A stretch of DNA of 64,000 nucleotides from a virus, in the IMG/VR virus record IMGVR_UViG_3300015360_000025; one strand, written 5' to 3'. Under the pieces are notes generated by a model. That model did not search any database. It saw only the letters and a list, made by a program, of their open reading frames with translations, and was not told the origin of the DNA. The number at the start of each line of letters is the position of its first letter. Within the stretch, counting starts at the first letter, position 1. Both the position numbers and the translations under genes were made by a program. Positions 2,197-60,933 of this stretch are shown piece by piece.

Positions 2197-2708
2197 TGGC
2201 TAGGAAATTTATAACTCAAAGAGAAATTGATTTTATCGATAAGATCAATCGCGAGTTGATCCAGAAGGTCGTCGGTCAGGAGGTCAGCTATTTCGAGATC
2301 GACCTCCAGAAGAGCAAAGCGAATCGGCTCTACGACGAGGCCATCGAGAAGGTGTGGAAGCCACCCGTACTGGTGAACGCCCGTGTCTTGTGGGACAACC
2401 CCAGCTCCGTCTCGAACAACATGGGCATCGATTCCAAGTACACGGCCGAAGTTTACTTCCACCGAGATGAGTTGGACAACAGGAATGTCTCGCCTAAGGA
2501 AGGAGACTTCCTGGAGTTCGGGCAAGTCTTCTTTGAGATAACATCAGTCACTACTCCTCAAATAGTCTTCGGACAGGTCAACAATAGGATCATGACCAAG
2601 TGCGTTTGCGTGCCCTCTCGCGAGGGACAGTTCCAGTCGGGAGGCCGGAGCAGCGAAGCGGTGGACAATACACACCCCATCGAGAATACAAAACACAAGC
2701 TACCCTAA
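2196..2708 (+). CDS. neck protein (T4 gp14-like head closure)
   Basis: F.KINRELI..VVGQEV.Y......N.LYDEA and GDF.EFG..FFEI motifs, plus synteny. Confidence 0.7.
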   Translation: MARKFITQREIDFIDKINRELIQKVVGQEVSYFEIDLQKSKANRLYDEAIEKVWKPPVLVNARVLWDNPSSVSNNMGIDSKYTAEVYFHRDELDNRNVSPKEGDFLEFGQVFFEITSVTTPQIVFGQVNNRIMTKCVCVPSREGQFQSGGRSSEAVDNTHPIENTKHKLP

Positions 2709-2716
2709 GGAACTCC

Positions 2717-3490
2717 ATGCGAACCATTTCCCTCTTTTTACTGATCATGTCCATGCTGTCTTGCTCATGTTTCCGTAGGTTTCCGGACCCAGGTGGGCAG
2801 GATGCCAGAGATATGATGACACAGACGGTCAAGGTGTCAGTCATGGTAGCTGGAGTCGAGCTTACCAAGAATGAGAATGGTGACGTCGTCGGTGAGGAGA
2901 AGGTGATATCCTGGATGGGATCGGGTGTCATCCTGGAAGTCGATTCCAAGAAGGGCAAGGGAGAGAGCTTAGTCATGACTGCCGGTCACGTCTCCAACGT
3001 CCCACCAATGATCGCGAAGAAAGATGATGAAGGTAACCTTCAGTCGTTGTTCCTCGTACAGGCGTCCATGACGGTTATCGAGACATTGGATGGGAAGACG
3101 TGTCTGGCTGAAGCTGTCTACTACGACGGTCCACACGACCTCGGAGTCATCCAAGTATTCTGCGTTGCAGGACGTGTGGCCGAACTGGCCGACGGTCTTC
3201 CCCCTATCGGTTCTGCCATCTCTGTCTCCGGAGCTGGACTTGGTTACCATCCAGCCGGACTCTTCTTGGTCGAGGACGGCCGTTACCTCGGTCTGGCAGA
3301 CGGAAGGGATCCTGATGTCGTCATGTCCGTCCCTGTCGTCGGTGGTCACTCGGGTTCCGGTGTCTTCCACCATGGCAAGGTGATCGGCATCGTGACCAAG
3401 GTATTCACAAGGTTTGAACACGGGTCCTTCGCCACCGGTGTGGATCACGTCAGGCGGGCCCTCGAGGCTGCCAGAGAGAACAGAATCTGA
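2717..3490 (+). CDS. trypsin-like serine protease with lipoprotein signal peptide
   Basis: TAGH (His), HDLG (Asp) and GGHSGSG (Ser) catalytic motifs. N-terminus MRTISLFLLIMSMLSC is a hydrophobic segment plus lipobox. Start moved to ATG 2717 (RBS AAGGA). Confidence 0.85.
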   Translation: MRTISLFLLIMSMLSCSCFRRFPDPGGQDARDMMTQTVKVSVMVAGVELTKNENGDVVGEEKVISWMGSGVILEVDSKKGKGESLVMTAGHVSNVPPMIAKKDDEGNLQSLFLVQASMTVIETLDGKTCLAEAVYYDGPHDLGVIQVFCVAGRVAELADGLPPIGSAISVSGAGLGYHPAGLFLVEDGRYLGLADGRDPDVVMSVPVVGGHSGSGVFHHGKVIGIVTKVFTRFEHGSFATGVDHVRRALEAARENRI

Positions 3491-22309: not shown

Positions 22310-23689
22310 ATGTACAAATTCATCGATGGGTACCTCGATCGCTCCCATCATTACGAGATCTTTCAGGACGGAATCGTTACTTCTGGCAAACATGATCCTC
22401 TTATCCGAGTTAGAGTTCCGGAACGTATAGTCTGTTTCGATTCACGGAAGATCTTCGCTCTCGGTGTAGAACAGGACTCTCTTTACCCTAGTCCTGTATA
22501 CGACATTAAGCTACTATACAGCCACGATGGAGAGCTCTCTCGCCTGGTTCGTAGCATCGATATCCCGATCCGTGGGGATTACCTTGAGCTGGAGAAACGC
22601 TTCTCTGCGCACACCAAGGCCATTGTTGCAGGTAAGGTGGATGTGGAGACGATCCCACTCCGAGAGTTGATCCCTGATGATCTTCGCCACGAGTATATGT
22701 ACGCTCGACTCTCGGCGATGAGACAGCTTTGGGAGAGGTTGACCGAGAAGGACTTGGTCAACTACGAAAAGAATGTGTATCCGATCTACCAGGACATTCT
22801 CATCATCGAGAAAGCTGGGATAAAGATCGACGAGACGTATGTCGCCTCACAGCTTAAGAGGAATGACTTGGCCTCTCATGAGGACAGTTTTTTCAAGAAC
22901 ATTATTGGAAACACGAAGAACGGCTTCGCGAAGACGAAGATAAGTCCAGTCGGTTCGAAGACTTGGCGGCTTCGTGTGGAGGGTGGATTCAATTGCATGG
23001 CGATCCCACATGGCGTATGCCGCAAGGCGATCGTTAGCAGGTTCGATGGAGGTACAATCACTACATTTGATTTCAATGCTATTGACTACCGTTGTCTGGT
23101 AAGGGCGACAGGCGATGACAAGTTGAACGAATTCTACGGTGGGTGCCGAGACTTTCACACTCGGACCGCGTCAATCCTGGGGGAAGTGACGCCAGAACTG
23201 CGAGTGTCAACAAAGAAGATCGCCTACACACACATCTACGGTGGATCGACCGAGACCCTCCAGAAACAGACGCTTCTTCCCAGAGCAGTCCTCGCCGAAC
23301 GAATACAGAAACTAGACGTGCTGTTCGCCCCAATCACCGACTTCAGGAAGCGCTTGAGCGACCAATCGAGGATCGACGGCTTCCTCATCACTCCTGGCGG
23401 TCACGTCGTGAAGATTGAGAAGGGAGACCACGATGGCAAGATCATCGGACTTTTCGGCCAGACATACAGTTCGTCAATCTTCAATGTGGCGGTGAAGGTT
23501 GTCAACAACATTTTGAAGATTAGGAATAGACAGAGTCGGATAATCTTCACTGTGCACGATGAGATCGTGCTTGATCTCCACCCTGACGAACGGGAGCTAT
23601 TGAAAAATCTGGCAGATGCAATGGAAGTGGCGACAGGATTCGTGGTCAAGGAAAAGGAAGGGAAAAGCTATGGCGAAGCAACCGACTGA
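22310..23689 (+). CDS. polA: family A DNA polymerase (compact)
   Basis: Motif A FDFNAIDYR, DFHT.TA, motif B R...KKIAYTHIYGG, motif C FTVHDEIV. Confidence 0.9.
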   Translation: MYKFIDGYLDRSHHYEIFQDGIVTSGKHDPLIRVRVPERIVCFDSRKIFALGVEQDSLYPSPVYDIKLLYSHDGELSRLVRSIDIPIRGDYLELEKRFSAHTKAIVAGKVDVETIPLRELIPDDLRHEYMYARLSAMRQLWERLTEKDLVNYEKNVYPIYQDILIIEKAGIKIDETYVASQLKRNDLASHEDSFFKNIIGNTKNGFAKTKISPVGSKTWRLRVEGGFNCMAIPHGVCRKAIVSRFDGGTITTFDFNAIDYRCLVRATGDDKLNEFYGGCRDFHTRTASILGEVTPELRVSTKKIAYTHIYGGSTETLQKQTLLPRAVLAERIQKLDVLFAPITDFRKRLSDQSRIDGFLITPGGHVVKIEKGDHDGKIIGLFGQTYSSSIFNVAVKVVNNILKIRNRQSRIIFTVHDEIVLDLHPDERELLKNLADAMEVATGFVVKEKEGKSYGEATD

Positions 23690-25644: not shown

Positions 25645-26835
25645 ATGTCTGACCTGAATCTACCTGACATCCCGCTCGAAGCTGAAGTCCCCGTCGATGT
25701 CGAGGACGTACGTGACGAATCTCTCGGTGCTGCCTCCTACGCCTTCATCGGTTCCGGACAGGGCGGTGGACGTTTGGCCGAGGCGTTCTTTAAGCTCGGA
25801 TACCGGAAGACAATCTGTGTCAACACCGCGAAGCAGGACCTCGCCAGCCTCACGCTCCCTGATGAGCAGAAAGTCCTCATCTCCGCGGGAGAGCAGGGAG
25901 CTGGGAAGGACATGAGAGTCGGAGAGGAGGCTGCCGCTAAGGCCCAGCAACAGATCTTCGAGCTCGTCAAGAAGAAGTTCGGACAGATCGATCACATCTT
26001 CATCTGCATCGGTGCCGGCGGTGGTTCAGGTGGCGGATCCAGCCTGGTCCTGATCGAGACGGCCAAGAAGTACCTCGTCTCCATGGGAATCGATGACGTT
26101 GACCAGAAGGTCGGGGTGGTCATGTCGCTTCCGACCAATGGTGAATGCGCTTCTCCGAACGTCGCCAAGAATGCCCAGTTCCTGGCCGATGCTCTCTGCA
26201 AGTTCGCAAAAGAGAAGCTTATCAGCCCGCTGATCTTCGTCGACAACGACAAGATCCAGAAGATGTACCCGAAGCTGACCGTGAAGGAGTTCTGGCCCAC
26301 CGTCAACGCGACCGTGGCCGGACTCTTCCACGTCTTCAACCTGATCCCCACCAAGGATACGCCATACACCACGTTCGACGCGGCCGATTACGGTTCTCTC
26401 ATGCGCGCCGGCGGGTGCATGATCATGGGTGTGACCTCAGTGCGCGACTTGAAGGATGCCAACGGCATCTCCTCAGCCATCCGCGGGAACCTTGAGAAGA
26501 CCCTCCTCGCTGAGGGATTCGATCTTCGTACGGCCACCCACGCCGCCGCGATCGTCCTTGGTGGTAAGAGCATCTTTGAATCTGCTCCAGGTCTCATGGG
26601 CGCCATCGAGGGTGGGCTGGACACCCTTGCCGCCATGACTGGCAAGGCGATGGTGCACCGTGGCATCTACGAGGACGACAAAGACCGACTGGCGGTCTAC
26701 ACTATGGTCGGAGGGCTCGCCTCTCCGGACAAGAGGATCAAGGCGCTTGGACGCCACCAGGCTCCGAAAGGGGACGAGAAGACTGAATCGGCGATGCCGG
26801 CACCGAAGTTTGGCAGCAGACTTTACGACGAGTGA
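25645..26835 (+). CDS. FtsZ/tubulin-family GTPase
   Basis: GSGQGGGRLAE, VNTA..DL, tubulin signature GAGGGSGGGS, DN.K, FD..DY. Confidence 0.9.
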   Translation: MSDLNLPDIPLEAEVPVDVEDVRDESLGAASYAFIGSGQGGGRLAEAFFKLGYRKTICVNTAKQDLASLTLPDEQKVLISAGEQGAGKDMRVGEEAAAKAQQQIFELVKKKFGQIDHIFICIGAGGGSGGGSSLVLIETAKKYLVSMGIDDVDQKVGVVMSLPTNGECASPNVAKNAQFLADALCKFAKEKLISPLIFVDNDKIQKMYPKLTVKEFWPTVNATVAGLFHVFNLIPTKDTPYTTFDAADYGSLMRAGGCMIMGVTSVRDLKDANGISSAIRGNLEKTLLAEGFDLRTATHAAAIVLGGKSIFESAPGLMGAIEGGLDTLAAMTGKAMVHRGIYEDDKDRLAVYTMVGGLASPDKRIKALGRHQAPKGDEKTESAMPAPKFGSRLYDE

Positions 26836-27233: not shown

Positions 27234-30200
27234 ATGGCCAAGCAGAAATTCCGCCCGCCCAATGAAACCCAAGGACGCGGGTTCCGTGGTGGTCAGGGAT
27301 TCCCCGTACCGATGGATATGAAGATCGGCTTCGGGGACGAGAAGTATGGTGAATTCGATGCCAGCATCGACGAGGATTCGTTCCTTGAAGACATCGTTGT
27401 AAACGTGTCTGCCAGGGTTACCGGTGGACAGCTCAAGAAGAAGGCGAGGTCTAAGGACGTCGTCTCCAAGAAAGGTTCTCCTCTCGACATCGTGGTCAAG
27501 AATGTCCTGGGTGGCCTACTGGGGGAAGCCGATGAGCAGGGCCCAAAAGGGCCACCGAATGGCATCGCCCACATCGAAGATCTAAAGCCTGAAGAGTTCC
27601 TGAGGTTCCTTGAGAAGTACAGAGACCTGCCACTGGATGGCGGACTCGAGGTATCTGAGAAGGTTGATGGCTCGGCGCATATGTCTTTCGGCGTCAAGGG
27701 TGGCCAACTCTGGACCAAGAGTAAGAATGGTACCGTCAAGATGTCTGCAGACGAGTATCCAGATCAACCGATGTTCCGCGCCTTGAAGCAGGCCCACTGG
27801 GCGCTACAAGAACTGACAACAAAGCTCCCGGAAGGTGTGACGTTTGCCTCCGATGTACTTTACACTCGCATTCCGAATTCGATCGAGTACGGCGACAACA
27901 GGATCGTGGTGCACGGAGTTTCTGGAGGAAATGGTGTCGAGGCCAAACAGGTCATTGATCAGCTGTCTACACAGAGTCTTTCTGACGGTGACCAGAATTG
28001 GAAGATCGAGTTCAAACGTGTCTTATCTCCAGATGAAGTTATGGTTGACGTAAAGGAGGAGTTCAACTCCATCTCCGAAATCTACGACGAGCTGAAGCGA
28101 CTCACACCCAACAAGTTGAAGGCGGTTGGCAAAGGACCGTACAAAGCCGCTCTCGCCAAGTTTCAAGCAATCCAGATGGCGCTAAAGAAGAAGCTTGTAG
28201 GACAACTCCGTGGCAAGAGTTCGGCCTACGGTCCAGAGGGTGGTGACGTCGAGGGACTGGTTTTCCGTGACCTGGAATCGGGTGCGATGACGAAGTTGGT
28301 CGACAAAGAATATTTCACCAAGTTGAATAAGTTCCTCTGGCGGTACCGTGAGATGCTCTATAATGGAGTTAAGATCGGCGACCAGTGGCAATTCGGGATA
28401 CTCCAACGCTTCCGGAATGCGATCGCCGACAATGTCCTCGGATCGGCCGTCGCCAAGACACCTGGTTTCGTGGGACAGTTGAAGAAGTTCGGGTATGATC
28501 TCGAGTACCCTCCTGGGGCTAACACTTCTGACAAGAGAGCAGATTTCCTTCTCTCACAGTACATTCAGAAGAATGGTCTCATGTCGGGTGACTACCTGTC
28601 TGGATTTGTGAAAGAGCTGTACACCGTCGCCGACGACTTCAAAGATCTCAGGAAGGAATGGGATACCAAGAAGAATGGTAACCTGACTCACCATGTGAAG
28701 GATGATCTCGGACATGTCATCAAGTCCATCACGATGGATCAGATCATCAAGGACAGAACAGAAGAGGCGTTCAAGGGTATGGAAGAATTCCTGCTCGGAA
28801 CTGGGAAGGCAATCGGTGAGATCGGCAAGATGAAGGGAGATTTAACAAAGAAGACCGCGCTGCTCAAGCTCATGATGGGACAGGGAAGATTGGAAAAGTT
28901 AGCGACAGAGGCTAGCCCAGGACTCCGCGAATCTGAGTCGCGTGTCGGATCCATCGAACCGTTGGTCCAGAAGAATATGCCGTTGCTGGCGAAGCATGGG
29001 TTTGACATAACCCGTCCGTCCGCCGATTGGCTTCCGAACGCCATCGGATCAGGAGCTTCAGGCACTGCATACAGCATGAAGGACGGTCGCGTTCTGAAGA
29101 TCACTACTGACGATACTGAAGCTCGGGCTAGCAACCACCTCAAAGGAAAGAAGCTCAAGTACGCTGCGCGAATCGACAACGTCTTCAGGTTCAAAGAAGA
29201 GCACGGTATTCCGGGTCGTCCTGTGAAGATGAAGTACTACGGGATCGTCCAGGAGAAAGTTAAACCTCTTTCGTCACCTGTCAAGCAAGAGCTAACAACC
29301 ATCCTTCGACTCGCAGAAGATCTATTCGGATTCGGTTGGATCACTAATGGTCGTGAGAAGAACGAGGCGCACGCAAAAGAATCTATTGCTGGTAATCCTG
29401 ATCTGACGGCAGATATCACGCGCCTTCTGAAGGGTATGAAGCAGCTCAAGCTCTGGGACATGCTGGAAGAGCTTCAGACCAATGGGGTCGAATGGCAGGA
29501 CCTCCATCCCGGTAACGTCATGATGCGCGGGAAGGACCTGGTCGCCATCGATCTTGGTGTCTCCCGCTCCCCTGGAGCAGAGCCAGATATCCTTGAATCA
29601 ATCCAGTACCTAGGAGAAGCCAACACTGGCGACGTAAAGTCAATTCTCAATAAGTTTGAACCTCTCCTTGCGAAGAACGGTATTAATGCCGGTGCGGAAC
29701 TGGGGTCCGGAAGTCAAGCGATCGTCTTCGACGCCGGTGGAGGGAAGGTCCTGAAGATTACTGAGGATCAGTCGGATGCTCAGGCCGCCCTCAAGGCGAA
29801 GGAATCTAATCTAAAGTACGTCGCCAAGGTCTTCAATGTCTTCAAGTTCCCCGGGGAAGACTACTACGGAATCGTCCTCGAGAGACTGGCCCACATTCCT
29901 GGTTCTGAGAGCGCTCCTGAGAGCACGAGCGGGGAGGCGGCGATCTTGGAGGAAGCCATTGACGAGTCTTTCCTCTTCGCTGCTTCGCGGGGAAAGTTCA
30001 TCCGTTCATGGCAGGAAGCTTTCAAAGCGATGAACGCCATTCTCAAGACCAGAATGTCTCTTGTCGGGACGCTCGCCGGTCAGGACATGCAGGAGAACTT
30101 CGCCGCTTCGATCGCCACACTCAAGAAGTACAACATCGATAAGATCATCGACGACATCGGTGCAGTCGGGATTGAGTTCGGTGACTGGCACACGGGCAAC

Positions 30201-31892
30201 ATCATGAAGCGGGGATCTGATTACGTTCTCGTCGATCTGGGTTACTCGAAGGTCCACGGTGGACGTGAGCCGGATGTGCTCGAAAAGAAGGTGGTCGAGG
30301 GGGTGCTGAAGACTCTCCGAGAGGCACGGGCTGACCAGGTAGGGGTTACCATCGGTCGCTTCCAACCGTTCCACAAGGGTCACGCAGAGATCATCCGTGG
30401 ACTCGCCAAGAAATTCGACAAGGTCATCGTCATCGTGGCCGGGAATACCAAGGACAAGAAGAATCCGTTCTCCCTCGAGACGAGGATGCAGTTGATGCAG
30501 AAGTCTCTACCGGACGTCATGTCCAATGTGGAGATCCACAAGGCTGAGTACGGAGGGAAGGGAAGCGGGTACATTCCGGGAGTCCTCTCAGACATCGTGA
30601 AGAACAAGAGGTCTTCGGTCGAGGCAGATACTGCCATCCACATTCTGGTCGGTCCGGATCGGTTCGCCGAGATCAAAAAGCAGTTGGACCACGCCAAATT
30701 GGCCAAGGAGCAGGGGACCGAATTGCTATTTGATCCCAACATGGCTGAGCTCAACCAACTCCCTGGGGTCAAGAATGACGACGATACGGATCGGATCTCC
30801 GGCACCAAGGTGCGTGAAGCTCTCGTTGCCGACCAGAAAGACGTCGTCCAGAGCATGATGGATCCACATCTGGTCTCGAATCCTGCCGACTTTGAGAATC
30901 TCTACGTTAAGATGCGTTCGGAACTGACGGCAGGGTTGGCGGGAAAGCGAGCACGACCGACCGATCCAAATCCCGCAGGTCTTGAAGAAGATCTGAAAGA
31001 CATCGGAAGCGAAGCAGGCGTTCAGGTCGTCCTTCAGGCGAATGCCGAGAAGCTCTTGGCTTCACCGTGGAAGATCGACGTCAACAAGCTTACCCAACTC
31101 GGATCTGGACAGGAGGGGATCGCCTACGACATCGGAGGCGGGAAGGTCATGAAGGTCTCGGCTGACGAGAAGGAAGCCGAGACCAGCTATGGCATCAAGG
31201 GCAAGACGAACCTGAAGCACGTCGTCCATGTCTTTGATGTCTTCCGCTTCATGGACACCCCTGGCATCGTGCAGCCGGTCTACTGTCTCATCACCGAGAA
31301 GCTCATCAAACTGACTGCACCCGAACAGAAGGAATTCGACGACGTCACCGACGAGTGTCAGGCGCAGATGGGCAAGAAGCGGTACATCGACGCCGTCTGG
31401 ACCGGAGACTGGAACCACTTCGTCCAAGAAATGCGATCTGCCTTCCAGGAAGACATCGCCAAAGAGTCGCACCTGCCGCCCGACCATCCACGTCTTGTCA
31501 GGGTCCTCGAATCTCGCATGCAGAGATACCTGCCGATCATGCAGAAGTTCAAGATGTCCGACATGATGTCCGAGCTAAAGGGATTGGGGATCAAGTTCGC
31601 CGACTACCACGGTGGAAACCTGATGAAGAGGGGAGGTGACTATGTCATCAACGATCTTGGCCGTTCGGAATCTACCAGCAATAAAGTACCACCGATGATG
31701 GAAGACATAGTCTCCAAGATCATCGAGGACTTCGGATTCGGTTCGTCTGCCGTCGGAATGAAGGCTGGTAGCTCCGCGTGGTCGACTTCCAAGAACCAAG
31801 TCGATCCTAATTCCAAGGAACTCTGGCAGAACCAACTCAATCGTATGGAACCGTTCCACTCAGGATCGGCGGACATTAAGAGACAGAAGTGA
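27234..31892 (+). CDS. multidomain protein: ligase-like nucleotidyltransferase + kinase + kinase + HxGH (NMNAT/cytidylyltransferase-like) + kinase
   Basis: EKVDG, EGLVFR, KLVDK. Three GSGxxG/VxK/DxHxxN/DLG sets (DLHPGN, DWHTGN, DYHGGN). GRFQPFHKGH and ISGTKVRE. Confidence 0.85.
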   Translation: MAKQKFRPPNETQGRGFRGGQGFPVPMDMKIGFGDEKYGEFDASIDEDSFLEDIVVNVSARVTGGQLKKKARSKDVVSKKGSPLDIVVKNVLGGLLGEADEQGPKGPPNGIAHIEDLKPEEFLRFLEKYRDLPLDGGLEVSEKVDGSAHMSFGVKGGQLWTKSKNGTVKMSADEYPDQPMFRALKQAHWALQELTTKLPEGVTFASDVLYTRIPNSIEYGDNRIVVHGVSGGNGVEAKQVIDQLSTQSLSDGDQNWKIEFKRVLSPDEVMVDVKEEFNSISEIYDELKRLTPNKLKAVGKGPYKAALAKFQAIQMALKKKLVGQLRGKSSAYGPEGGDVEGLVFRDLESGAMTKLVDKEYFTKLNKFLWRYREMLYNGVKIGDQWQFGILQRFRNAIADNVLGSAVAKTPGFVGQLKKFGYDLEYPPGANTSDKRADFLLSQYIQKNGLMSGDYLSGFVKELYTVADDFKDLRKEWDTKKNGNLTHHVKDDLGHVIKSITMDQIIKDRTEEAFKGMEEFLLGTGKAIGEIGKMKGDLTKKTALLKLMMGQGRLEKLATEASPGLRESESRVGSIEPLVQKNMPLLAKHGFDITRPSADWLPNAIGSGASGTAYSMKDGRVLKITTDDTEARASNHLKGKKLKYAARIDNVFRFKEEHGIPGRPVKMKYYGIVQEKVKPLSSPVKQELTTILRLAEDLFGFGWITNGREKNEAHAKESIAGNPDLTADITRLLKGMKQLKLWDMLEELQTNGVEWQDLHPGNVMMRGKDLVAIDLGVSRSPGAEPDILESIQYLGEANTGDVKSILNKFEPLLAKNGINAGAELGSGSQAIVFDAGGGKVLKITEDQSDAQAALKAKESNLKYVAKVFNVFKFPGEDYYGIVLERLAHIPGSESAPESTSGEAAILEEAIDESFLFAASRGKFIRSWQEAFKAMNAILKTRMSLVGTLAGQDMQENFAASIATLKKYNIDKIIDDIGAVGIEFGDWHTGNIMKRGSDYVLVDLGYSKVHGGREPDVLEKKVVEGVLKTLREARADQVGVTIGRFQPFHKGHAEIIRGLAKKFDKVIVIVAGNTKDKKNPFSLETRMQLMQKSLPDVMSNVEIHKAEYGGKGSGYIPGVLSDIVKNKRSSVEADTAIHILVGPDRFAEIKKQLDHAKLAKEQGTELLFDPNMAELNQLPGVKNDDDTDRISGTKVREALVADQKDVVQSMMDPHLVSNPADFENLYVKMRSELTAGLAGKRARPTDPNPAGLEEDLKDIGSEAGVQVVLQANAEKLLASPWKIDVNKLTQLGSGQEGIAYDIGGGKVMKVSADEKEAETSYGIKGKTNLKHVVHVFDVFRFMDTPGIVQPVYCLITEKLIKLTAPEQKEFDDVTDECQAQMGKKRYIDAVWTGDWNHFVQEMRSAFQEDIAKESHLPPDHPRLVRVLESRMQRYLPIMQKFKMSDMMSELKGLGIKFADYHGGNLMKRGGDYVINDLGRSESTSNKVPPMMEDIVSKIIEDFGFGSSAVGMKAGSSAWSTSKNQVDPNSKELWQNQLNRMEPFHSGSADIKRQK

Positions 31893-32917
31893 CTCTCCTC
31901 CGCATCAACCTGAAAAAAGAGAAAAGGAAATTCAAGAAAGCCGTAGCTATACGCACGGCCGTTTCCCCTGATCTCATCTGGAATCCATGGTCGCTTGAAG
32001 CTTTACTTGTTTCATTCGAGAGACATGTGAGACGGGTCGGTCGCGGGCCTGGAGAAAATAGGTCCGTCGCCGAACCGACAGCTCCGACCTTCGGCGGTGA
32101 GATCCAGGGACCGAACACCCATTATGATGTCGACAATGTCGGAGCTTTGTTCGAAGTGAAGGGTCTCTCTGGATACGAAAGAACCATCAATATCGGAGGG
32201 GAAGGGAATTCGCTTGTCACAGACTTCACTTCTCAGATCTGTCTAGTGGTCGGAGAATTGAGAGAGTTCAAGAAGGTGCTAGACATACTCGATAGAGTGA
32301 CAGCTCGCGCCGTCCTGACCGAAGGATTCAGCATCCAACGCTTCAACGATTTCTTCGAAGAGCTAGTGCCCAAGTTGGAGACCGGAGTGGAGATCGCCCG
32401 CGGTACCGTCATCCATGCCGTCGATCAGTTCGAGAGGATCACCAGGTTCATGATCAGGGCGAAAGCGGAGCTTGAAATTTCCAAGAAGAAAATAGGTAGC
32501 GTGATCTTTGACTACGAAGGAAAGACGTTACTCTTGGAACAGGCGTCTTCAGAACTGCAGCTGCAACTGTTAAGAGATGTCGGCGTACCTCCTGAAGAGA
32601 TTGCTCGGAAGTTCTTCTTGATCATCGGTCAGAAGATTACTCACCCATGGCTGACAAACTACGGTAGATTCAGAGAAGCCTGGGAGAACCTCGCCCAAGC
32701 CGCCGACGTCTTAACGGCGGCCACCGACGGGTTGCTTGTCGTGCATGAAGAGTACGGCTGGTTCCTCATACCTCTCAGCGAGGTCAATACTCGGTTGACT
32801 TTCGATTCCATCACCAGGCGATCTCTGCGCTTTCGTCTCAATGCTCTTCCTCCGAAACCCGTAAAGAACGTTCAGAAAACGATCCTGAGGTGTATCAGTG
32901 CCGTCGTGGAATGTTGA
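31889..32917 (+). CDS. hypothetical protein, possible PD-(D/E)XK fold
   Basis: 342 aa overlapping the previous stop (GTGA), with a YDVD-x6-EVK segment. Start uncertain. Confidence 0.45.
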   Translation: MTLLRINLKKEKRKFKKAVAIRTAVSPDLIWNPWSLEALLVSFERHVRRVGRGPGENRSVAEPTAPTFGGEIQGPNTHYDVDNVGALFEVKGLSGYERTINIGGEGNSLVTDFTSQICLVVGELREFKKVLDILDRVTARAVLTEGFSIQRFNDFFEELVPKLETGVEIARGTVIHAVDQFERITRFMIRAKAELEISKKKIGSVIFDYEGKTLLLEQASSELQLQLLRDVGVPPEEIARKFFLIIGQKITHPWLTNYGRFREAWENLAQAADVLTAATDGLLVVHEEYGWFLIPLSEVNTRLTFDSITRRSLRFRLNALPPKPVKNVQKTILRCISAVVEC

Positions 32918-33422
32918 ATGGGTCCGGGCCAAAGAGTATGTGCTCCTGAATTGTGAGTGCACGCCTATCCTTCTCAGTCAATCGTCAAAGCCTGATCTCT
33001 CATGGCTGATGAGTCGGATGGAAGAGCTAAGGATCCCGATTTCGTATACTAAGAATCTGGAAAAGATCATCTTTACCAAGATTCCCAGGGGACACCACGG
33101 CGATTACCAGGGAGACATCATTCGCCTGGCGGCAGATAAGAAGACTGCACCGATCCTAGACAAAGTTTTCGTTCACGAATTAGCTCATCATGTCGACGAT
33201 CACGAAGACATCTCTTCTGACGATCTCCTGATCAAGGAGAAAAAGGTTGCTTCCAAGTACATGGACGATGCCTATGCCAGGAAGAACACGAGTGAATATC
33301 TAGCTGTCGGGTTTGAAGTCTACTACCTCGGGACCAAGGAAGAGAAGAAGAAATTGAGGGCCAAAAACCCACGCCTCTACCGTGCGATCGCCGCTTTACA
33401 CCGGAAATTCAGTCGCATGTGA
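32898..33422 (+). CDS. zincin metallopeptidase-like protein (HExxH)
   Basis: FVHELAHHVD plus downstream YA..N.SEY.A.GFE.YY, similar to lethal-factor/Pro-Pro peptidase-type zincins. Start uncertain. Confidence 0.65.
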   Translation: MPSWNVEWVRAKEYVLLNCECTPILLSQSSKPDLSWLMSRMEELRIPISYTKNLEKIIFTKIPRGHHGDYQGDIIRLAADKKTAPILDKVFVHELAHHVDDHEDISSDDLLIKEKKVASKYMDDAYARKNTSEYLAVGFEVYYLGTKEEKKKLRAKNPRLYRAIAALHRKFSRM

Positions 33423-40335: not shown

Positions 40336-43056
40336 ATGACCACGGAAATCTACGAGCCGGCTGGCTTTGCGCTGGAGATATTCAAGAAGAGGTACGCCAG
40401 ACACGAGAATGAAAGCTGGCAGGAGGCATGCGATCGTGTGGCTTCCCACATGGCTGCAGCCGAAACGAACGGTCACGTCGCCGAGTACAAAGAACTCTTC
40501 AGTGACATCCTGAAGAAGAATCTCTTCTTTCCTGGCGGACGAATCTGGTACGGATCTGGCAGACCGAAAGCCCAACTCCTGAACTGTTTTGTCATACCTA
40601 CGAAGGATAGTCGCGAAGGTTGGGGAAAAACACTCCACGACACTGTGGTGATTTCAGGAACTGGAGGAGGAGTCGGTTGTAACTACTCTCCCACCCGTCC
40701 GAGAAACTCAAAGATTGAAGGGACCGGAGGAATAGCGACCGGTGCCGTCAGTGAAATGCGGATGGTGAATAGCATCGGAGACGAGCTCAAGGCTGGAGGT
40801 GGTCGCCGTATCGCTCTGATGATGGCTCTGAACCTGACGCACGGAGACATCCTAGAGTTCCTCGACGCCAAGCTCGACAAGAACCAGCTGAACAACGCCA
40901 ATGTCAGTGTCATCTTCGATGAGGATCCAGAGCGTTTCTTCAAGTTGGTCAAAGAGGAAGGTATCCTCGAACTCAAGCATAACGGCAAAGTCGTTGGCTC
41001 CGCTTCGGCCAAAGAGCTCTGGCACAAGATCGTCAGCAACGCGCTGAAGGGTGGTGAGCCAGGCCTTCTGAATGGCTACCTCGCCAACAAGATGTCAAAC
41101 ATCTGGTACTTCAGACCACTCATCTGTACGAATCCGTGTATCACCGGTGACACTCTTATCGCCGTCGCGGACGGGAGAAATGCCGTCAGCATCAAACAGC
41201 TCGCTGACGAAGGCAATAACGTCCCTGTCTACTCGACGAATGTCGAGACCGGGCAGGTCGAAATCAAGACCGGGCGGAACCCTAGAAAGACCGGCGCGTC
41301 GAAAGAAGTCTGGAAACTCACGCTTGATGACGGTTCTATTCTCCGAGCGACACCGAATCACAAGATTATGAGACTTGACAGACAGTATGTCGAGCTGAAA
41401 GACCTGAAGCCCGGAGACAGTGTGTTCCCGTTTAACACGTTCAGTTCGAACGGCTACAGACAGGTTTGTGGTACGGGTGCACAGATGTCAGGAGGAGCTC
41501 GCAGGAATCGTAGGCAGTACAGACTGATTAACGAGTTCTTCAACGGGCCGACGGACGCGAAACGCTTCGCTATCCATCACGCCAACTTCGACTGTACTGA
41601 CGATAGCATCGATAACTTGAAGATGTTGGAACACGAAGAACACCGGCGTCTTCACACCGAGAAGATGATGGGAGCGAAGAACCAATATCATCGAATGGAC
41701 GAGCAGTGGAAGAATGACTTCGCTTCTCACCCCGGAGAAGAGAACGGTCGTTTTTCGGGACACACGAACGAGGAACTTGTCGTCGAAGGACGTGAGGTCT
41801 TCGAAAAGAACGGGAAGTTGACGCAGGAACTCTGGGTCGAGCACGCGGAGAACAAGGGTCTTCCACAGTTTCTCGGCAACGACTTCCGATTTGGGTCATT
41901 CACGAATTTCAGGAACCAGGTCGTGACCAATCACCGGGTCGTCTCTGTCGAGTTTGACTGTCACGAAGATGTCTACAACATCACCGTCGATGACAATCAC
42001 AACTACCATGTCGTCACTAGCGGAGACGGCGAAAAGAACGTCGTGTCTTCTGGTCTCTGCGTCAAGAATTGCGGGGAGATCTGGCTGGTCGAGTACGACT
42101 GCTGTGACCTCGGTTCGCTCGTGCTTCCTCGGTTCATCTACAATGATGGTGGTAAGCTGAAGATCGATCGTCCTCTTATGAAGAGGGTCATCAGCATCGC
42201 GATCAGATTTCTCGACAACGTCCTGACCGCGAACAACTACCCGATGCTTGAGATCAAGGAGATGTGTTCCATGATCCGTAGAATCGGTCTTGGTGTCACC
42301 GGACTTGACACGATGCTGATGGAGTTAGGGCTGAAGTACAACTCTTCCGAAGCTCTCGAGTACGTCGACAGCTTGATGAACTTCATCAAGAACTGCGCCT
42401 ACGAGGCAGGTATCGAGCTCGCCAAAGAGAAGGGAAGCTTCCCGGCATTCGACGCCGAGAAGTTCCTGCAGAGTGGATTCATGAAGACCATGAAGCCTTC
42501 TATCAGGAGTGACATCCGAAAGCACGGGATCAGGTTCTGCGCTGGCCTTACCTTACCACCTGTCGGTACAGGTTCGATGGTCTGCAACGTCGACAGCGGG
42601 ATCGAGAAGGCCTTCGGTCCGGCATGGAACCGCTGCTTCCGAGATGGGGACAACCTCAAGAATGAGATCGTTATCCATCCAATCTTCAAGAGGAAGTATC
42701 TTGCTGGAGAAGATGTCTCTCACTTCCAGACCGTCTGGGACCTGAGCATGCGTGACCATTTCGAGATGCAACGGGTCTGCCAGAAGCACATCGACAACGC
42801 GGTTAGTAAGACGATCAACCTCCCTCCAGGAACGTCCATCCAGGAGCTCTCAGAACTCTACATGGAGTTCTTCCCTGATCTCAAGGGTGTGACCGTGTAC
42901 CCCGAGGGCAGCCGAGAGAACCAACCAATCACTCCACTCTCTGTTGCCGACGCAATCGCCCACATCGATGCCGAGGTAGCCGCAGGTCCAACCAGCGACG
43001 ACTCGTGCCGTGGTGGGGTTTGTGATGTCCCGTGGGCCAAAGATGTGGTAAAATAA
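40336..43056 (+). CDS. nrdJ: ribonucleotide reductase, class II-like, containing an intein
   Basis: PGGRI, LLNCFV, GGVG, EPG. NPC/GEI is split by the intein. C.LGS, RRIGLG..G, P.GT.S, IDNAVSKTINLP. No beta subunit nearby. Confidence 0.85.
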   Translation: MTTEIYEPAGFALEIFKKRYARHENESWQEACDRVASHMAAAETNGHVAEYKELFSDILKKNLFFPGGRIWYGSGRPKAQLLNCFVIPTKDSREGWGKTLHDTVVISGTGGGVGCNYSPTRPRNSKIEGTGGIATGAVSEMRMVNSIGDELKAGGGRRIALMMALNLTHGDILEFLDAKLDKNQLNNANVSVIFDEDPERFFKLVKEEGILELKHNGKVVGSASAKELWHKIVSNALKGGEPGLLNGYLANKMSNIWYFRPLICTNPCITGDTLIAVADGRNAVSIKQLADEGNNVPVYSTNVETGQVEIKTGRNPRKTGASKEVWKLTLDDGSILRATPNHKIMRLDRQYVELKDLKPGDSVFPFNTFSSNGYRQVCGTGAQMSGGARRNRRQYRLINEFFNGPTDAKRFAIHHANFDCTDDSIDNLKMLEHEEHRRLHTEKMMGAKNQYHRMDEQWKNDFASHPGEENGRFSGHTNEELVVEGREVFEKNGKLTQELWVEHAENKGLPQFLGNDFRFGSFTNFRNQVVTNHRVVSVEFDCHEDVYNITVDDNHNYHVVTSGDGEKNVVSSGLCVKNCGEIWLVEYDCCDLGSLVLPRFIYNDGGKLKIDRPLMKRVISIAIRFLDNVLTANNYPMLEIKEMCSMIRRIGLGVTGLDTMLMELGLKYNSSEALEYVDSLMNFIKNCAYEAGIELAKEKGSFPAFDAEKFLQSGFMKTMKPSIRSDIRKHGIRFCAGLTLPPVGTGSMVCNVDSGIEKAFGPAWNRCFRDGDNLKNEIVIHPIFKRKYLAGEDVSHFQTVWDLSMRDHFEMQRVCQKHIDNAVSKTINLPPGTSIQELSELYMEFFPDLKGVTVYPEGSRENQPITPLSVADAIAHIDAEVAAGPTSDDSCRGGVCDVPWAKDVVK
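41137..42069 (+). mobile_element. intein with HNH homing endonuclease (311 aa)
   Basis: Starts CITGDTLI, block B LRATPNHKI, HNH IHH.N....D...NL..L...EH..LH, ends DVYNITVDDNHNY...VKN followed by extein Cys. Confidence 0.92.
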
Positions 43057-47481: not shown

Positions 47482-50388
47482 ATGATCAAGGACTTCGCCA
47501 GCTTTCACAACCACAGTCACTTCTCCGTAATGGATGGTATCAGCCTTCCTGAGGAGATGATCAAGACTGCTAAGGCGAAGGGGTTAAAGTCCATTGCGAT
47601 TACAGACCACGGGCACTGTCACGGTCATGCCGACTTCTTCCTGTTCGGGAAGAAGCACGGCGTCCGTACTGTGTTCGGAGTCGAGGCTTACGTTATCCAC
47701 GACTTGAAGGAGTGGCAGGACCTCAAGGACTCAGCCGGCTTCGAGGACACACAGGAACGGGACTCCAACACTGCCGGTGATGACGAGGGGAAGAAACTCT
47801 CGAAGCAACTCTACCGTAAGGGACACCTAGTCCTCCTGGCGTGCAACAGGGAGGGTTTGGCGAACCTGTACCAGCTGACTTACAAGGCCCACAAGGATGG
47901 GTTTTACGCCAAACCCAGGATGGACAAGAAGATGCTGGCCCAACATTCTAAGGGCGTCATCGCGACGTCTGCATGCATGGGCGGTGTCATCGCCAACAAG
48001 TGCTGGGACCTGAAGAACGGACGAGGAGACTTCCAAGACATAGTCAACGAGGCGAAGGAGTTCGACGAGATCTTTGGCCGAGGACGTTTCTTCCTGGAAC
48101 TCCAGTTCAACGAACACGACGGACAAAGGTTCATCAACGAATTGCTTGTACGAGTTCACAAAGAGACAGGGATCCCGCTGACCGTAACTACCGACTCTCA
48201 CTACACTCAGCCAGAAGAGTGGAAGGCTCAAGAGCTCCTCTACATGCTCCGGTCCAATAAGACCGTGACGACGCGTGGGGACAAGTGGGACTTCCAGGTC
48301 AAGCAGCTCTACATCAAATCTCCCGAAGAGATGTGGCAGACGTTTGAGAAGTTCGGCGGGATGCTTGAACCGAAGATCGCGCTTGAAGCATTCCAGAACA
48401 CGATGCTCATCGACAGTCTGGTCGACGACTACGAGCCAGACACACACAAGCGACTACCTTCCCTTCCGTACGAAGACCCGTTCATGGAGATGATGGCTCG
48501 GGCCGTGAAGGGGCTCAAGGCCCACGGTCTGGCGCAGAAGGACGAGTACAAGACCCGTCTCCTTCACGAGATGAAGATTATCAAGGAGAAGGGGTTCGCC
48601 AACTACTTCCTCATCACCCAGCAGATCATCGAAGAGGCGCGCAAGACCATGATGGTCGGAGAGGGCCGTGGTTCGTCCGCGGCGTCACTCGTCTGCTACT
48701 GCTTGGGGATAACCGACCTTGATCCCATCGAACACGACCTGCTATTCGAGCGCTTCATGGACCCATCCAGAACTGAGGAGCCCGACATCGACATTGATTT
48801 TGAGGACGTTGAAGCGACTAAGGACATGCTTCGCCGAATGTTCGGCGAACAGAATGTAGCGTGTCTTTCCTCGTATGGTACCTTTCAGATCAAGGGTCTT
48901 CTGAAAGATGTTGGCCGGGTTTATGACCTGCCTGTTAAGGTCGTCAACGACGCCAACAAGAAGATCGAGAAAGAACTAAAGGTCCTCTACCTAAACCAGG
49001 ACAAGAGCACCCTCGTCATCAAGTTGGAAGACGTGCAAAGAGTCAGTCAGACATTCCGAGAGCTGGTTGAGAAGTATCCGCTGGTAGGTGAGCACCTGAC
49101 CAAACTTTACGGACGCAACCGACATTGCAGTCGACACGCCGCAGGTGTCATCATCGGCGATAACCTCCCGGCCGAGACTGCATTGTGGGTCCAAAAAGAC
49201 AAAGATACGGGGAAGCAGATCGTCCAGGCGTCCTTCACTGAAGGCATCGTCAACAAGAATGTCTCGGCGATGGGCTTCACCAAGTTCGACATCCTCTCCA
49301 TCGCCACACTCAAGGTGATACACTATGCCCTCAAGCTAATCTCCGAGAGGACCGGACGTCCAATAACGGAACTCCGAGAGATGGTCCGTTCGAAGAACAT
49401 GAAGTTGAATGACCCGAAGATCATGGAGCACTGCTTCTGGAACGGGAACTTTGCCGGGGTCTTCCAGTTCACTGAAAAGGGGATTCGACGTGTGGCGAAG
49501 AACGTCCATCCCGATACCTTTGTCGACATCTCAGCCATCTCTTCCATCTACCGTCCAGGTCCATTGGCTGGCGGCTTTGACAAACTCTACGCTCACAACA
49601 AACACCATCCTGAAGATGTGACCTACGAGCATCCGCTGCTTGAGTCAATTCTGAAGAAGACACGTGGTTGTATCGTGTTCCAAGAACAGCTGATGCAGAT
49701 CTGCAACTCTCTGGGCAAGATGTCGTGGAAAGACGTGAATGCCGTACGCAAGGTTCTACTGAAGAAGGACAAGAGCAAGACAGAAGAGTTCCTTAAGTCA
49801 GAGAACGAACGTCTCGCCGGACTGTTCTACAAGGGGTGCGAAGAGAACGGCTACCCTCGATACATTGTGACCGGGACTGAAAAGAAGAAGGACGAGAAGG
49901 GTGAAGAGAAGGAAGTTGAGATCAGAATTCCGAAGGCGGAGAAGCTCTGGAATGACCTGCTTGCGTTCGGTGGCTACGGATTCAACAAAAGTTTGCACTT
50001 TGCTCAACGAATTGCTATTTATAGTAACGGGAACGTAATCTCTAAGGAAATCAAGGACGTACAAAAAGGTGATTTAGCATTTTCTCGTGATGAAAAAAGC
50101 GGCAAAATATTTTTAGAACCAATCGTTGCTCTTCATGACCACGGAGAACTTGAGTTAATAGAATTTACGATGGATGATGGGAGTACTGTGCGATGCACGG
50201 CAAATCACAAGTTCAGGACGACGACCGGAGAGATGTCACGAATCTCAGAGATTATGGCCAGAGACTTGGAGATCGTCTCGTTTGCAGACTTTGCGCCACT
50301 AGTGTCAGATCAGCTTCTCATTGGGAAGCAGGACGTTGTAAACAAGCTCATGTCTGTAAATGTGGAGCAGAGTTCATCGGAACGATAG
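47482..50388 (+). CDS. dnaE: DNA polymerase III alpha, N-terminal part + N-intein
   Basis: PHP HNHSHFS..DG, TDHG, GRGSSAASLV.Y.L.IT..DP, PDIDIDF, KFDIL, GYGFNK followed by intein SLHF... Confidence 0.95.
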   Translation: MIKDFASFHNHSHFSVMDGISLPEEMIKTAKAKGLKSIAITDHGHCHGHADFFLFGKKHGVRTVFGVEAYVIHDLKEWQDLKDSAGFEDTQERDSNTAGDDEGKKLSKQLYRKGHLVLLACNREGLANLYQLTYKAHKDGFYAKPRMDKKMLAQHSKGVIATSACMGGVIANKCWDLKNGRGDFQDIVNEAKEFDEIFGRGRFFLELQFNEHDGQRFINELLVRVHKETGIPLTVTTDSHYTQPEEWKAQELLYMLRSNKTVTTRGDKWDFQVKQLYIKSPEEMWQTFEKFGGMLEPKIALEAFQNTMLIDSLVDDYEPDTHKRLPSLPYEDPFMEMMARAVKGLKAHGLAQKDEYKTRLLHEMKIIKEKGFANYFLITQQIIEEARKTMMVGEGRGSSAASLVCYCLGITDLDPIEHDLLFERFMDPSRTEEPDIDIDFEDVEATKDMLRRMFGEQNVACLSSYGTFQIKGLLKDVGRVYDLPVKVVNDANKKIEKELKVLYLNQDKSTLVIKLEDVQRVSQTFRELVEKYPLVGEHLTKLYGRNRHCSRHAAGVIIGDNLPAETALWVQKDKDTGKQIVQASFTEGIVNKNVSAMGFTKFDILSIATLKVIHYALKLISERTGRPITELREMVRSKNMKLNDPKIMEHCFWNGNFAGVFQFTEKGIRRVAKNVHPDTFVDISAISSIYRPGPLAGGFDKLYAHNKHHPEDVTYEHPLLESILKKTRGCIVFQEQLMQICNSLGKMSWKDVNAVRKVLLKKDKSKTEEFLKSENERLAGLFYKGCEENGYPRYIVTGTEKKKDEKGEEKEVEIRIPKAEKLWNDLLAFGGYGFNKSLHFAQRIAIYSNGNVISKEIKDVQKGDLAFSRDEKSGKIFLEPIVALHDHGELELIEFTMDDGSTVRCTANHKFRTTTGEMSRISEIMARDLEIVSFADFAPLVSDQLLIGKQDVVNKLMSVNVEQSSSER
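49990..50388 (+). mobile_element. split intein, N-half (132 aa)
   Basis: Starts SLHFAQRI after GFNK. Block B DGSTVRCTANHKFRT. Ends at stop TAG 50386. Confidence 0.85.
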
Positions 50389-57330: not shown

Positions 57331-57760
57331 CTTCGACAATGTCTACATGAATCTCGCTCTCATGTTGGCGGCGAGGAGCACGTGTTCCCGCCTCCATGTG
57401 GGATGTGTCGTCGTATCAGGTGACAATCAACGTGTACTCGCGATCGGTTATAACGGATCGTACCGTGGTGGACCGAACGGTTGTGACTCGTCTGAACCTG
57501 GCAACTGCGGGTGTTTACACGCCGAGGACAACTCTCTAATAAAGATGAACTACAATGATCCCGCAGAGAAGAAACTTTACACAACGATCATGCCCTGCGT
57601 CTATTGCGCTAAACGGATCGTAAATGCCGGAGTCGGAGAAGTTATCTATCTCTATGCGTACAGGAAAACGGAAGGTCTCCAAGTCCTCGCGTCGGCGGGC
57701 GTCAAAGTCCGGCAGCTCGCGCCGGGGGACATACTGTTCGTCGAAGACCGGAAAGACTGA
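57317..57760 (+). CDS. dCMP deaminase
   Basis: RSTC.R..VG.V, GYNG, HAE.N, PC..CAK.I...G..EV.Y. Confidence 0.92.
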   Translation: MNRPSFDNVYMNLALMLAARSTCSRLHVGCVVVSGDNQRVLAIGYNGSYRGGPNGCDSSEPGNCGCLHAEDNSLIKMNYNDPAEKKLYTTIMPCVYCAKRIVNAGVGEVIYLYAYRKTEGLQVLASAGVKVRQLAPGDILFVEDRKD

Positions 57761-58064
57761 GAAGTACGACTCTTCCTATGAACTCCGGAGGTTCATAGCT
57801 CTAGATGCTTCTCCACTCGTGGAGACGTGGACAAAACAACACGGGCTGAAGATCAGGTACACCATGCTCGGAAGACGTCACAGGTATCATCCAGACATTC
57901 TTGTGATTTACCACGACGGTCGGAAATTTGTGGAAGAGATCAAAGGTAAAGTATGGGATCGATTGGCATTTGGCCTGAAGAACCTGGCCGCCATCTCCCA
58001 CTGCGCCATGTACGGGATGAAATACCGAGTGGTGTTCCGGGAACAACTCGAGTTGGTCGTATAG
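57654..58064 (+). CDS. TnsA-like free-standing endonuclease
   Basis: G.Y.S.KTG....Y.SSYE, I.Y......Y.PD.LV...DG....EEIKG. Overlaps the deaminase 3' end. Start ATG 57654 or 57624. Confidence 0.75.
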   Translation: MRTGKRKVSKSSRRRASKSGSSRRGTYCSSKTGKTEKYDSSYELRRFIALDASPLVETWTKQHGLKIRYTMLGRRHRYHPDILVIYHDGRKFVEEIKGKVWDRLAFGLKNLAAISHCAMYGMKYRVVFREQLELVV

Positions 58065-58083
58065 TTACATTTGGAGGCCGAAA

Positions 58084-58440
58084 ATGAAGAAGACGATCAC
58101 CAAGCAGGATGGCTCTGTCGAAGTCGTAGAAGGCACGGCGGAAGAGATAGCGGATTACGAGCGTAAGCTCAAGGGTCAGCCAGTTCTCGAGGCTCCCAAG
58201 CCCGGTCCTGGACTCCTAACCGACGACCTTCGCCGTCTCCTTCAGTACAGTCCGTTTGAATCAGGATACCGTATCGATCACGGACCGACCTGCCAGCTCA
58301 CCGTCGCCCAGCAGGGATGGTGGTCCATCAACCCTCCGATGTGCACCTGCGGATTGATCGCCTACCCCATCCATGGTGGTACCATTCGCTACACGACTGG
58401 GACTAACATCCCTGTCGCAGGTTTACCAGATCGGTCGTGA
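58084..58440 (+). CDS. hypothetical protein
   Basis: 118 aa, RBS GGAGG. Confidence 0.65.
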   Translation: MKKTITKQDGSVEVVEGTAEEIADYERKLKGQPVLEAPKPGPGLLTDDLRRLLQYSPFESGYRIDHGPTCQLTVAQQGWWSINPPMCTCGLIAYPIHGGTIRYTTGTNIPVAGLPDRS

Positions 58441-58610
58441 GACGCCCACCCATCCAAGTCCCTCCGGCGCATGTGATAGAGGAACTGGAGAAACACCGCC
58501 AACCGCTCTACGAACCAGTTCCTCTTCAGCTTCCACTTCCTTTACCTCCACCCTACGAACCTTCCGAACCGAAGAAGCATGGTGGCTCAGTCATCGTGAT
58601 ACAATTGTGA
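58437..58610 (+). CDS. small Pro-rich protein (57 aa)
   Basis: MRRPPIQVPPAHVIEELEKHRQPLYEPVPLQLPLPLPPP...GGSVIVIQL*, with GTGA overlaps at both ends. Confidence 0.5.
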   Translation: MRRPPIQVPPAHVIEELEKHRQPLYEPVPLQLPLPLPPPYEPSEPKKHGGSVIVIQL

Positions 58611-60645: not shown

Positions 60646-60679
60646 CGCAAGGGAGGCATGTTGAACCCGGGGTGACGCT

Positions 60680-60895: not shown

Positions 60896-60933
60896 TGTCA
60901 GCGATCGCTGACATTGCTTCACAAGGAGAAACA

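Follow-up and report, generated by a model that had tools for sequence, protein, structure and literature searches.

A phage protein that joins an RNA-ligase-type domain, an NMNAT-like HxGH domain and three kinase-like domains: a candidate polyvalent effector of an uncultured myovirus

The DNA stretch analysed here, in the following called the window, comprises 64,000 nucleotides of the IMG/VR virus record IMGVR_UViG_3300015360_000025 and stems from an uncultured myovirus of about 190 kb. An open reading frame (ORF) on its + strand, at positions 27234-31892, encodes a protein of 1552 amino acids (P0001). The long start of this ORF is correct, since the homolog P0003, which is 80% identical, spans the full length including the N-terminus. 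An initial annotation, made from the letters of the sequence alone, had described positions 27528-30938 (residues 99-1235) as a ligase-like KxDG domain paired with an NMNAT-like HxGH domain. All motifs of this span are located in one + strand frame and both domains are present, but two complete kinase-like domains inside the span had not been mentioned, and a third one lies just beyond it. The domain order of the protein is leader, RNA-ligase-type domain with helical domain, kinase-like domains K1 and K2, NMNAT-like HxGH domain, kinase-like domain K3, and tail. Five enzyme domains of three kinds are therefore contained in a single phage polypeptide, which is the multi-domain composition by which polyvalent proteins are recognized. 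The features are as follows:

27234-31892, + strand: whole multi-enzyme "polyvalent" protein P0001 (ORF of 1552 residues, with the full-length homolog P0003)
27234-27530, + strand: N-terminal leader, residues 1-99 (Gly/Arg-rich start, acidic stretch, end ...VLGGLLGE|ADEQ)
27561-28358, + strand: covalent nucleotidyltransferase of RNA-ligase type, residues ~110-375 (motifs, modelled fold, conservation, PF09414 matches in relatives)
28359-28943, + strand: conserved helical accessory domain with two beta-hairpins, residues ~376-570, about 200 residues (model and conservation)
28956-29603, + strand: kinase-like domain K1, residues ~575-790 (GSGASG, VLKI, DLHPGN, IDLG; weak APH/ABC1 matches)
29625-30299, + strand: kinase-like domain K2, residues ~798-1022 (GSGSQA, VLKI, DWHTGN, VDLG; AlphaFold model with pLDDT 94)
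30336-30929, + strand: HxGH (HIGH-superfamily) nucleotidyltransferase, NMNAT-like, residues ~1035-1232 (PF01467, TIGR00125, NMNAT relatives)
31017-31703, + strand: kinase-like domain K3, residues ~1262-1490 (GSGQEG, VMKV, DYHGGN, NDLG)
31716-31892, + strand: conserved C-terminal tail, residues ~1495-1552 (GFGSS..AGSSAWS..ELWQN..SGS)

The KxDG domain contains EKVDG at residue 142 (nt 27657), EGLVFR at residue 340 (nt 28251) and KLVDK at residue 354 (nt 28293). Motif I (K143-V-D-G) is followed in the proper order by motif III (D207), motif IV (E340-G-L-V-F-R) and motif V (K354-L-V-D-K358) on a nucleotidyltransferase fold, as is characteristic of the covalent nucleotidyltransferase superfamily. 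Among 64 aligned relatives, E340, G341 and K354 were invariant, K143, D145 and G146 were present in at least 90%, and D357 was nearly invariant (at least 90%); the acidic residue of motif III was also kept in at least 90%, being Glu there and Asp in the window protein. Residues 100-590 were modelled with AlphaFold (AF2; pLDDT 90). In a Foldseek search with this model every strong match was a ligase, with capping enzymes appearing low in the list, and when the model was compared by VIA-align all 50 best rows were ligases, the top 26 of them RNA ligases with Z scores of 9.0-11.9. The values were Z 11.9 for NgrRnl (root-mean-square deviation, rmsd, 3.6; 185 aligned residues), 10.8 for T4 Rnl1 (rmsd 3.8; 171 residues), 10.7 for T4 Rnl2 (rmsd 3.3; 179 residues), 10.4 for REL1 (rmsd 3.2; 174 residues) and 9.7 for the Trl1 ligase domain (rmsd 3.9; 200 residues); DNA ligases reached up to 8.9. 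The proposed membership of the N-terminal domain in the ligase/capping superfamily has thus held, the model matching ligases and not unrelated folds, and RNA ligases are closest by fold as well as by the Pfam matches of the relatives. The part of the proposal that concerned capping found no support, capping enzymes being worse matches than RNA ligases.

The gathering thresholds of PF09414 (Rnl2/Rnl5 type) and PF09511 (Rnl1/Trl1 type) were not reached by the ligase domain of the window protein, and it was consequently treated as a clade apart within the superfamily. When 1.8 billion representatives were scanned in full with HMMER, 283 relatives of the domain were found at E<=1e-3, almost throughout metagenomic phage proteins, about 100 of which were stand-alone proteins of 350-500 residues. 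PF09414 (RNA_ligase) was matched by 27 of 56 stand-alone relatives at E<=0.01, and PF09511 (RNA_lig_T4_1) came out just below threshold in full-length homologs (best in P0043, 27.1 vs 28.3 bits). None of the clusters with stand-alone relatives of the ligase or kinase domains had a name, and for the ligase domain a protein atlas offered nothing but viral clusters without names. Judged by its modelled fold, the KxDG domain truly belongs to the covalent nucleotidyltransferase superfamily, in which it is closest to the RNA ligases and forms a clade of its own. Contrary to the initial annotation, which saw no accessory domain, the nucleotidyltransferase part is followed by the conserved helical domain, which is common to the window protein and the stand-alone ligase relatives. 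Only the alignment with the Trl1 ligase domain extended into it, up to model residue ~394-410.

The HxGH domain carries GRFQPFHKGH at residue 1041 (nt 30354) and ISGTKVRE at residue 1188 (nt 30795). The HIGH-superfamily residues H1047-K-G-H1050 and I-S-G-T-K-V-R1194 are in place, and two generic models were matched well above threshold, namely PF01467 with 52.4 bits (cut-off 21; 8e-14) and TIGR00125 with 55.5 bits (cut-off 27.7). Together with the conservation in the 64 relatives and the ligase fold, these matches indicate that the five motifs named at the outset are real and not due to chance. The first ~65 residues resemble the signature of archaeal NMNAT/NadM (GRFQPFHxGH ... KNPFSxExR). The best matches among solved structures were 1f9a, 2qjt, 2qjo and 1ej2, including the NadM proteins of Francisella and Synechocystis; the NMNAT MJ0541 (1f9a) was found with 1.7e-11 when the family profile was used. 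The nearest named stand-alone relatives are proteins of 165 residues, which align over 80% of the domain with 27-30% identity and whose NMNAT names are automatic JGI annotations. From the sequence, the label "NMNAT-like" appears justified.

About 40% of the protein consists of the three kinase-like domains, which are paralogous, of ~215 residues each, and show ~30% mutual identity (E 1e-25 to 1e-29). The glycine loop, the beta3 Lys, the D-x-H-x-x-N loop and D-x-G were invariant in all of the 24 aligned copies, which come from the window protein and its relatives. A VIA search of the whole PDB with the K2 model gave protein-kinase folds in all 50 top rows (Z 9.9-7.6). The domains end ~15-30 residues past DxG, the structural alignments stop just after DFG, and an activation segment and the C-lobe helices F-I are absent both from the alignments and from the K2 model. 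On the strength of this model, K1-K3 are truncated protein kinases with complete catalytic residues; truncated kinases with an active site and without the C-terminal subdomain are known from polyvalent proteins (PMC5512222). The closest viral structures to K2 were small phage protein kinases, including those of the T7 group. In a comparison with T7 gp0.7 by hhalign the probability was 76% (E 2e-5), restricted to the N-lobe; the gp0.7 family PF27024 is annotated on the homologs P0036 and P0062, and the domains of the window protein had no Pfam match. A Pfam scan of the 24 copies gave weak APH and ABC1 matches only and no kinase model reached its threshold. The tRNA 2'-kinase ArkI, a small enzyme of the eukaryotic protein kinase (ePK) fold which phosphorylates tRNA (PMC9095486), was also among the structural matches of K2 (Z 8.5), and by this comparison RNA may be a substrate of the kinase domains.

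The pairing of the ligase and HxGH domains, the strongest new result here, is not confined to large proteins with kinases. Of the 150 top-ranking representatives of the ligase clade, 17 have the ligase domain ahead of the HxGH domain and 10 have the reverse arrangement, in every case without a kinase domain; the catalytic motifs of both domains were present in those of these kinase-free fusions that the motif patterns matched. In the cultured Xanthomonas phage BUDD (ON758385; L019 4127-5468), the two occur as overlapping adjacent genes: the gene for USV40837, a "hypothetical protein" of 286 residues matching the ligase profile with E 3e-7, overlaps the start of the gene for USV40836, an HxGH transferase of 162 residues. 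The suggestion that the two domains form a pair is borne out by these arrangements, since fusion in both orders and an overlapping gene pair speak for a functional partnership and not for chance co-delivery. No association of a ligase with NMNAT or another HIGH enzyme was found in the literature searched; the survey of RNA repair by Burroughs and Aravind (2016), which lies outside of that literature, might mention the pair. The BUDD genes should be a tractable entry point to this partnership.

The core is common to about 70 metagenomic proteins of 850-2500 residues, which are encoded on contigs of up to ~200 kb. Their general plan is an optional InPase (inorganic pyrophosphatase), 2H or extra kinase domain, the ligase and helical domains, one to five kinases, an optional SLT (peptidoglycan hydrolase) domain, the HxGH domain, another kinase and the tail. 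An SLT domain with the catalytic motif E-S...AYNAG is embedded in nine homologs, and ten contain InPase, a domain of virion-packaged polyvalent proteins (PMC5512222). In five homologs the ligase domain is immediately preceded, on its N-terminal side, by an intact 2H phosphoesterase that has both of its HxT motifs. Kinases and HxGH without a ligase domain occur as well, e.g. in P0035, P0054, P0058, P0061 and P0183. The leader is kept in P0003-6, P0009 and P0010, and also in P0035 despite the absence of a ligase domain there; pLDDT is low at the start of the model, immediately after the leader. The C-terminal tail was recovered in about half of the homologs and has an internal position in the longer ones.

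Conserved (L/I/V/M)-x-E motifs are found at the domain junctions. LLGE|A follows the leader and is duplicated in P0005, where the two copies flank an insert of 130 residues; P-x-L-E follows each kinase, with Glu in at least 90% of 24 copies. Upstream of the HxGH domain, a junction site is located at offset -13 from the domain start in 45 of 65 proteins, and each of the 65 has one or more sites within 25 residues.

Polyvalent proteins, as described by Iyer, Burroughs, Anand, de Souza and Aravind in 2017 (PMC5512222), resemble the present family in several respects: they are large phage proteins made of unrelated enzymes, they contain truncated kinases, they share with the relatives described here InPase, 2H and peptidoglycan hydrolase domains, a zincin MPTase is found nearby, and both are predicted to be injected together with the DNA. 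An RNA ligase and an adenylyltransferase of the HIGH superfamily are both absent from the polyvalent domains described there, and the family would add them to the repertoire. The 2H domains of polyvalent proteins were never seen with RNA ligases (PMC5512222); the direct fusion of 2H to the ligase domain in five relatives contradicts that observation. The kinase clade of the same study, from (pro)phages of Verrucomicrobia-Chlamydia and Bacteroidetes, is marked by an insert that separates the catalytic His from the catalytic Asp; no such insert was seen here.

With the RNA ligases NgrRnl/Rnl5, T4 Rnl1, T4 Rnl2 and fungal Trl1, the KxDG domain shares the nucleotidyltransferase fold and motifs I, III, IV and V, and with Rnl1 and Trl1 in particular a helical C-terminal accessory domain in place of an OB fold; however, identity is only 12-17%, and the helical domain here is larger and unmatched. 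The HxGH domain has GRFQPFHKGH, KNPFSxExR and ISGTxxR in common with archaeal NMNAT (MJ0541) and NadM/NadR, from which it differs by being ~40 residues longer; it lacks a Nudix or P-loop kinase partner and has ePK-like kinases on its flanks and a ligase to which it is coupled. The kinase-like domains correspond to T7 gp0.7, small phage Ser/Thr kinases, OspG, RIO and ArkI in having the ePK N-lobe and catalytic loop within ~200-230 residues and no activation segment, but they are embedded as one to five paralogous copies in one polypeptide, unlike gp0.7 and other minimal kinases. Each of these groups, i.e., polyvalent proteins, RNA ligases, NMNATs and phage kinases, is known; a multi-enzyme family combining them was not found in the literature searched.

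These data are, on balance, best accommodated by a polyvalent and probably virion-delivered effector, which would combine RNA sealing, synthesis of nicotinamide adenine dinucleotide (NAD+) or a similar dinucleotide, and phosphorylation of host proteins. Its relatives suggest that it enters the host cell during infection and acts there against defences. With respect to substrates, packaging and processing of the 1552-residue protein, we infer the following course. The protein would probably be a late product that is packaged in the virion and enters the cell along with the DNA, possibly after cutting into separate enzymes at the conserved (L/I/V/M)-x-E junctions. The ligase domain would form Lys143-AMP and reseal broken RNA, the likeliest substrates being tRNAs or other RNAs of translation which were cleaved by host anticodon nucleases. 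Phages use NMNAT-type adenylyltransferases to rebuild NAD+, and the HxGH domain would convert nicotinamide mononucleotide (NMN) and ATP to NAD+, which could offset NAD+-depleting defences, feed an NAD+-dependent removal of 2'-phosphates in RNA repair, or serve both. The kinases would phosphorylate host proteins in the manner of T7 gp0.7. Removal of the 2'-phosphate by KptA/Tpt1 consumes NAD+ (PMC9503650); a repair of 2H/Trl1 style that leaves a 2'-phosphate for KptA/Tpt1 is therefore a plausible link between the ligase and NAD+, and a joint counter to the two main abortive tactics is another. If this is true, members of this phage clade bring along ready-made enzymes, and RNA repair, restoration of NAD+ and rewiring of host proteins could take place before phage genes are expressed; the combination would answer the two commonest tactics of abortive infection, tRNA cleavage and NAD+ depletion.

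The best evidence for delivery comes from the relatives. An embedded peptidoglycan hydrolase is sensible only for a protein which meets the cell wall, and the SLT domain thus argues for delivery by the virion. Similarly, RNA repair is favoured by the 2H domain with both HxT motifs next to the ligase domain in five homologs. Several observations weigh against the proposed function. The window protein itself contains no SLT, 2H or InPase domain, and delivery at injection, as had been assumed initially, is supported indirectly by the nine homologs with SLT but not by the protein for which it was assumed. The gene is situated between tail and replication genes, which makes the timing of its expression ambiguous, and the (L/I/V/M)-x-E junctions could be structural caps instead of cleavage sites. 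The ligase domain of the window protein had no match to Pfam, NCBIfam or PHROG models, and a profile of the ligase clade compared with solved structures gave no ligase and only spurious helical matches; the link to ligases is hence made through the fold and through transitive Pfam matches. Every NMNAT equivalog cut-off was missed by a wide margin (TIGR01527, 45.9 vs 181.2 bits; NF002243, 50 vs 127; TIGR01526, 34.6 vs 341), and the matches to these models were confined to the first ~60 residues of the HxGH domain. Beyond its first ~65 residues the domain has invariant motifs of its own, GGKGSGYIPG, VGxDR and NDDD. The initial designation as NMNAT/NadR-like is therefore appropriate for the sequence, whereas an identity as NMNAT and the synthesis of NAD+ can be put forward only as presumptive. 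To our knowledge, NMNAT by itself is not able to regenerate NAD+ from ADP-ribose and nicotinamide, and no NadV turned up among the ORFs of the window that were scanned. A NADAR gene, with which NAD+ regeneration had been thought to fit, was likewise not found among these ORFs.

The same domains could also belong to an ordinary cytoplasmic enzyme of the early or middle period of infection, which is neither packaged nor injected and acts as one uncleaved polypeptide. Such an enzyme, which is possible but doubtful, would be in keeping with the neighbouring PolA-like, HD, tubulin-like, SSB-like (single-stranded DNA-binding) and UvsX genes and with the lack of SLT in the window protein. An SLT domain in mid-protein, as in nine homologs of the same syntenic gene, would however be useless in the cytoplasm, the leader is kept irrespective of the domain that follows it, and associations with InPase and MPTase are typical of packaged polyvalent proteins (PMC5512222). 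Another explanation would be that kinase and HxGH domains perform a two-step activation of a small molecule, from X-OH to X-P to NDP-X, with a product that is not necessarily NAD+; models for this are NadR (riboside kinase plus NMNAT), RibF, HldE, and choline kinase plus CCT. Pairs of a kinase and a HIGH transferase are a classic pathway design, and in the present family kinase domains flank HxGH almost always; the weak APH and ABC1 matches are to families that include small-molecule kinases, and the missed NMNAT equivalog cut-offs point in the same direction. We regard this as unlikely nonetheless, because GRFQPFHxGH together with KNPFSxExR is the archaeal NMNAT/NadM signature, NMNATs are the nearest named relatives of the HxGH domain, phage protein kinases come closest to the fold of the kinase domains, a protein with one to five kinase copies would be odd for a single metabolic step, and ligase-HxGH pairs exist without any kinase.

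The order 2H-ligase-...-kinase in five homologs is reminiscent of a complete heal-and-seal RNA repair machine like Trl1, in which the kinase-like domains would be RNA 5'-OH (or 2'-OH) kinases and the 2H domain of the relatives a cyclic phosphodiesterase; the match to Trl1 ligase-domain structures, whose alignments reach deepest into the helical domain, and the similarity of K2 to ArkI would agree with it. The score of ArkI, however, is level with those of many protein kinases (Z 7.6-9.9), protein kinases are the best viral matches, and several proteins, such as P0035, keep kinases and HxGH without a ligase. Moreover, the kinases have the ePK fold and not the P-loop fold of the Trl1 type, and a 2H domain is missing from the window protein. 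We know of no RNA 5'-kinase with an ePK fold, and a machine of this type is quite unlikely. An identity of the KxDG domain as DNA ligase or as mRNA capping enzyme is very unlikely: its catalytic motifs are common to the whole superfamily, and the structural match lists do include DNA ligases (Z ~8-9) as well as the capping enzyme of vaccinia, but the RNA ligases rank above them, a helical C-terminal domain as in Rnl1 and Trl1 is present instead of an OB domain, and the Pfam matches of the relatives are to RNA-ligase models. Finally, the fusions in both orders and the overlapping BUDD genes demand some direct link between ligase and HxGH, and the two could form one coupled two-enzyme machine of undescribed chemistry, delivered ready-made at infection. 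As one option, the ligase might take its AMP from NAD+ or another dinucleotide made by the HxGH domain; alternatively, HxGH might act on RNA 5' ends, e.g., in NAD-capping. This idea seems rather improbable compared with the virion-delivered effector that is preferred here.

The structural genes of the window include those for the tail sheath, a gp19-like tube protein, the baseplate hub and the tape measure. They are followed by three tail genes, by genes for PolA-like, HD-like and tubulin/TubZ-like proteins and then by the gene for the 1552-residue protein; downstream of it lie a zincin MPTase, a weakly gp32-like (SSB-like) protein, UvsX, a 5'-3' exonuclease, DnaB, ribonucleotide reductase and a DnaE-like polymerase. 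The gene order around the 1552-residue gene was the same in L001, a metagenome contig of 198.6 kb from NCBI, and in the contigs L002 and L003. A nucleotide search revealed no GenBank phage that is close to the 20 kb around the gene, and a tblastn search with the whole protein gave two matches only, both to the HxGH domain. The metallopeptidase is situated two genes downstream:

32898-33422, + strand: zincin metallopeptidase (ATLF-like "MPTase") of 174 residues (PF07737, 1.5e-8; association only)

It is also present in L001 and may have a part in processing or be an effector that is co-delivered; MPTase is the hub domain among polyvalent proteins (PMC5512222). The stop of the 1552-residue gene is overlapped by four bases by an ORF of 342 residues (31889-32917, + strand), and the two genes are for this reason probably translationally coupled. 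The ORF had no match in Pfam or PHROG; in L001, the gene behind the homolog is of about the same size.

Other genes of the window deserve mention. Two genes upstream of the 1552-residue protein (25645-26835, + strand), a protein of 396 residues belongs to the tubulin/FtsZ family and has a TubZ-like C-domain (PF00091, 1.5e-10; PF22453); apart from this phage tubulin in a myovirus of ~190 kb, no other chimallivirus marker was seen within the window. Directly after the tail genes (22310-23689, + strand), a protein of 459 residues corresponds to family A DNA polymerases in their C-terminal polymerase part only (PF00476, 2e-21), and its position is kept in L001 and L002; an additional DnaE-like polymerase gene is present at 47482-50388. 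Among the neck and tail genes, a trypsin-like serine peptidase (2600-3490, + strand; PF13365, 1.1e-8) is a candidate for a virion-maturation protease. The large subunit of ribonucleotide reductase (40336-43056, + strand) contains an HNH-endonuclease-like insert at about residues 367-456, which may be an intein or a homing endonuclease. The region 57624-61812 (+ strand) encodes a TnsA-like endonuclease (57624-58064), a calcineurin-like phosphoesterase (59899-60645) and the thymidylate synthase ThyX (60865-61812).

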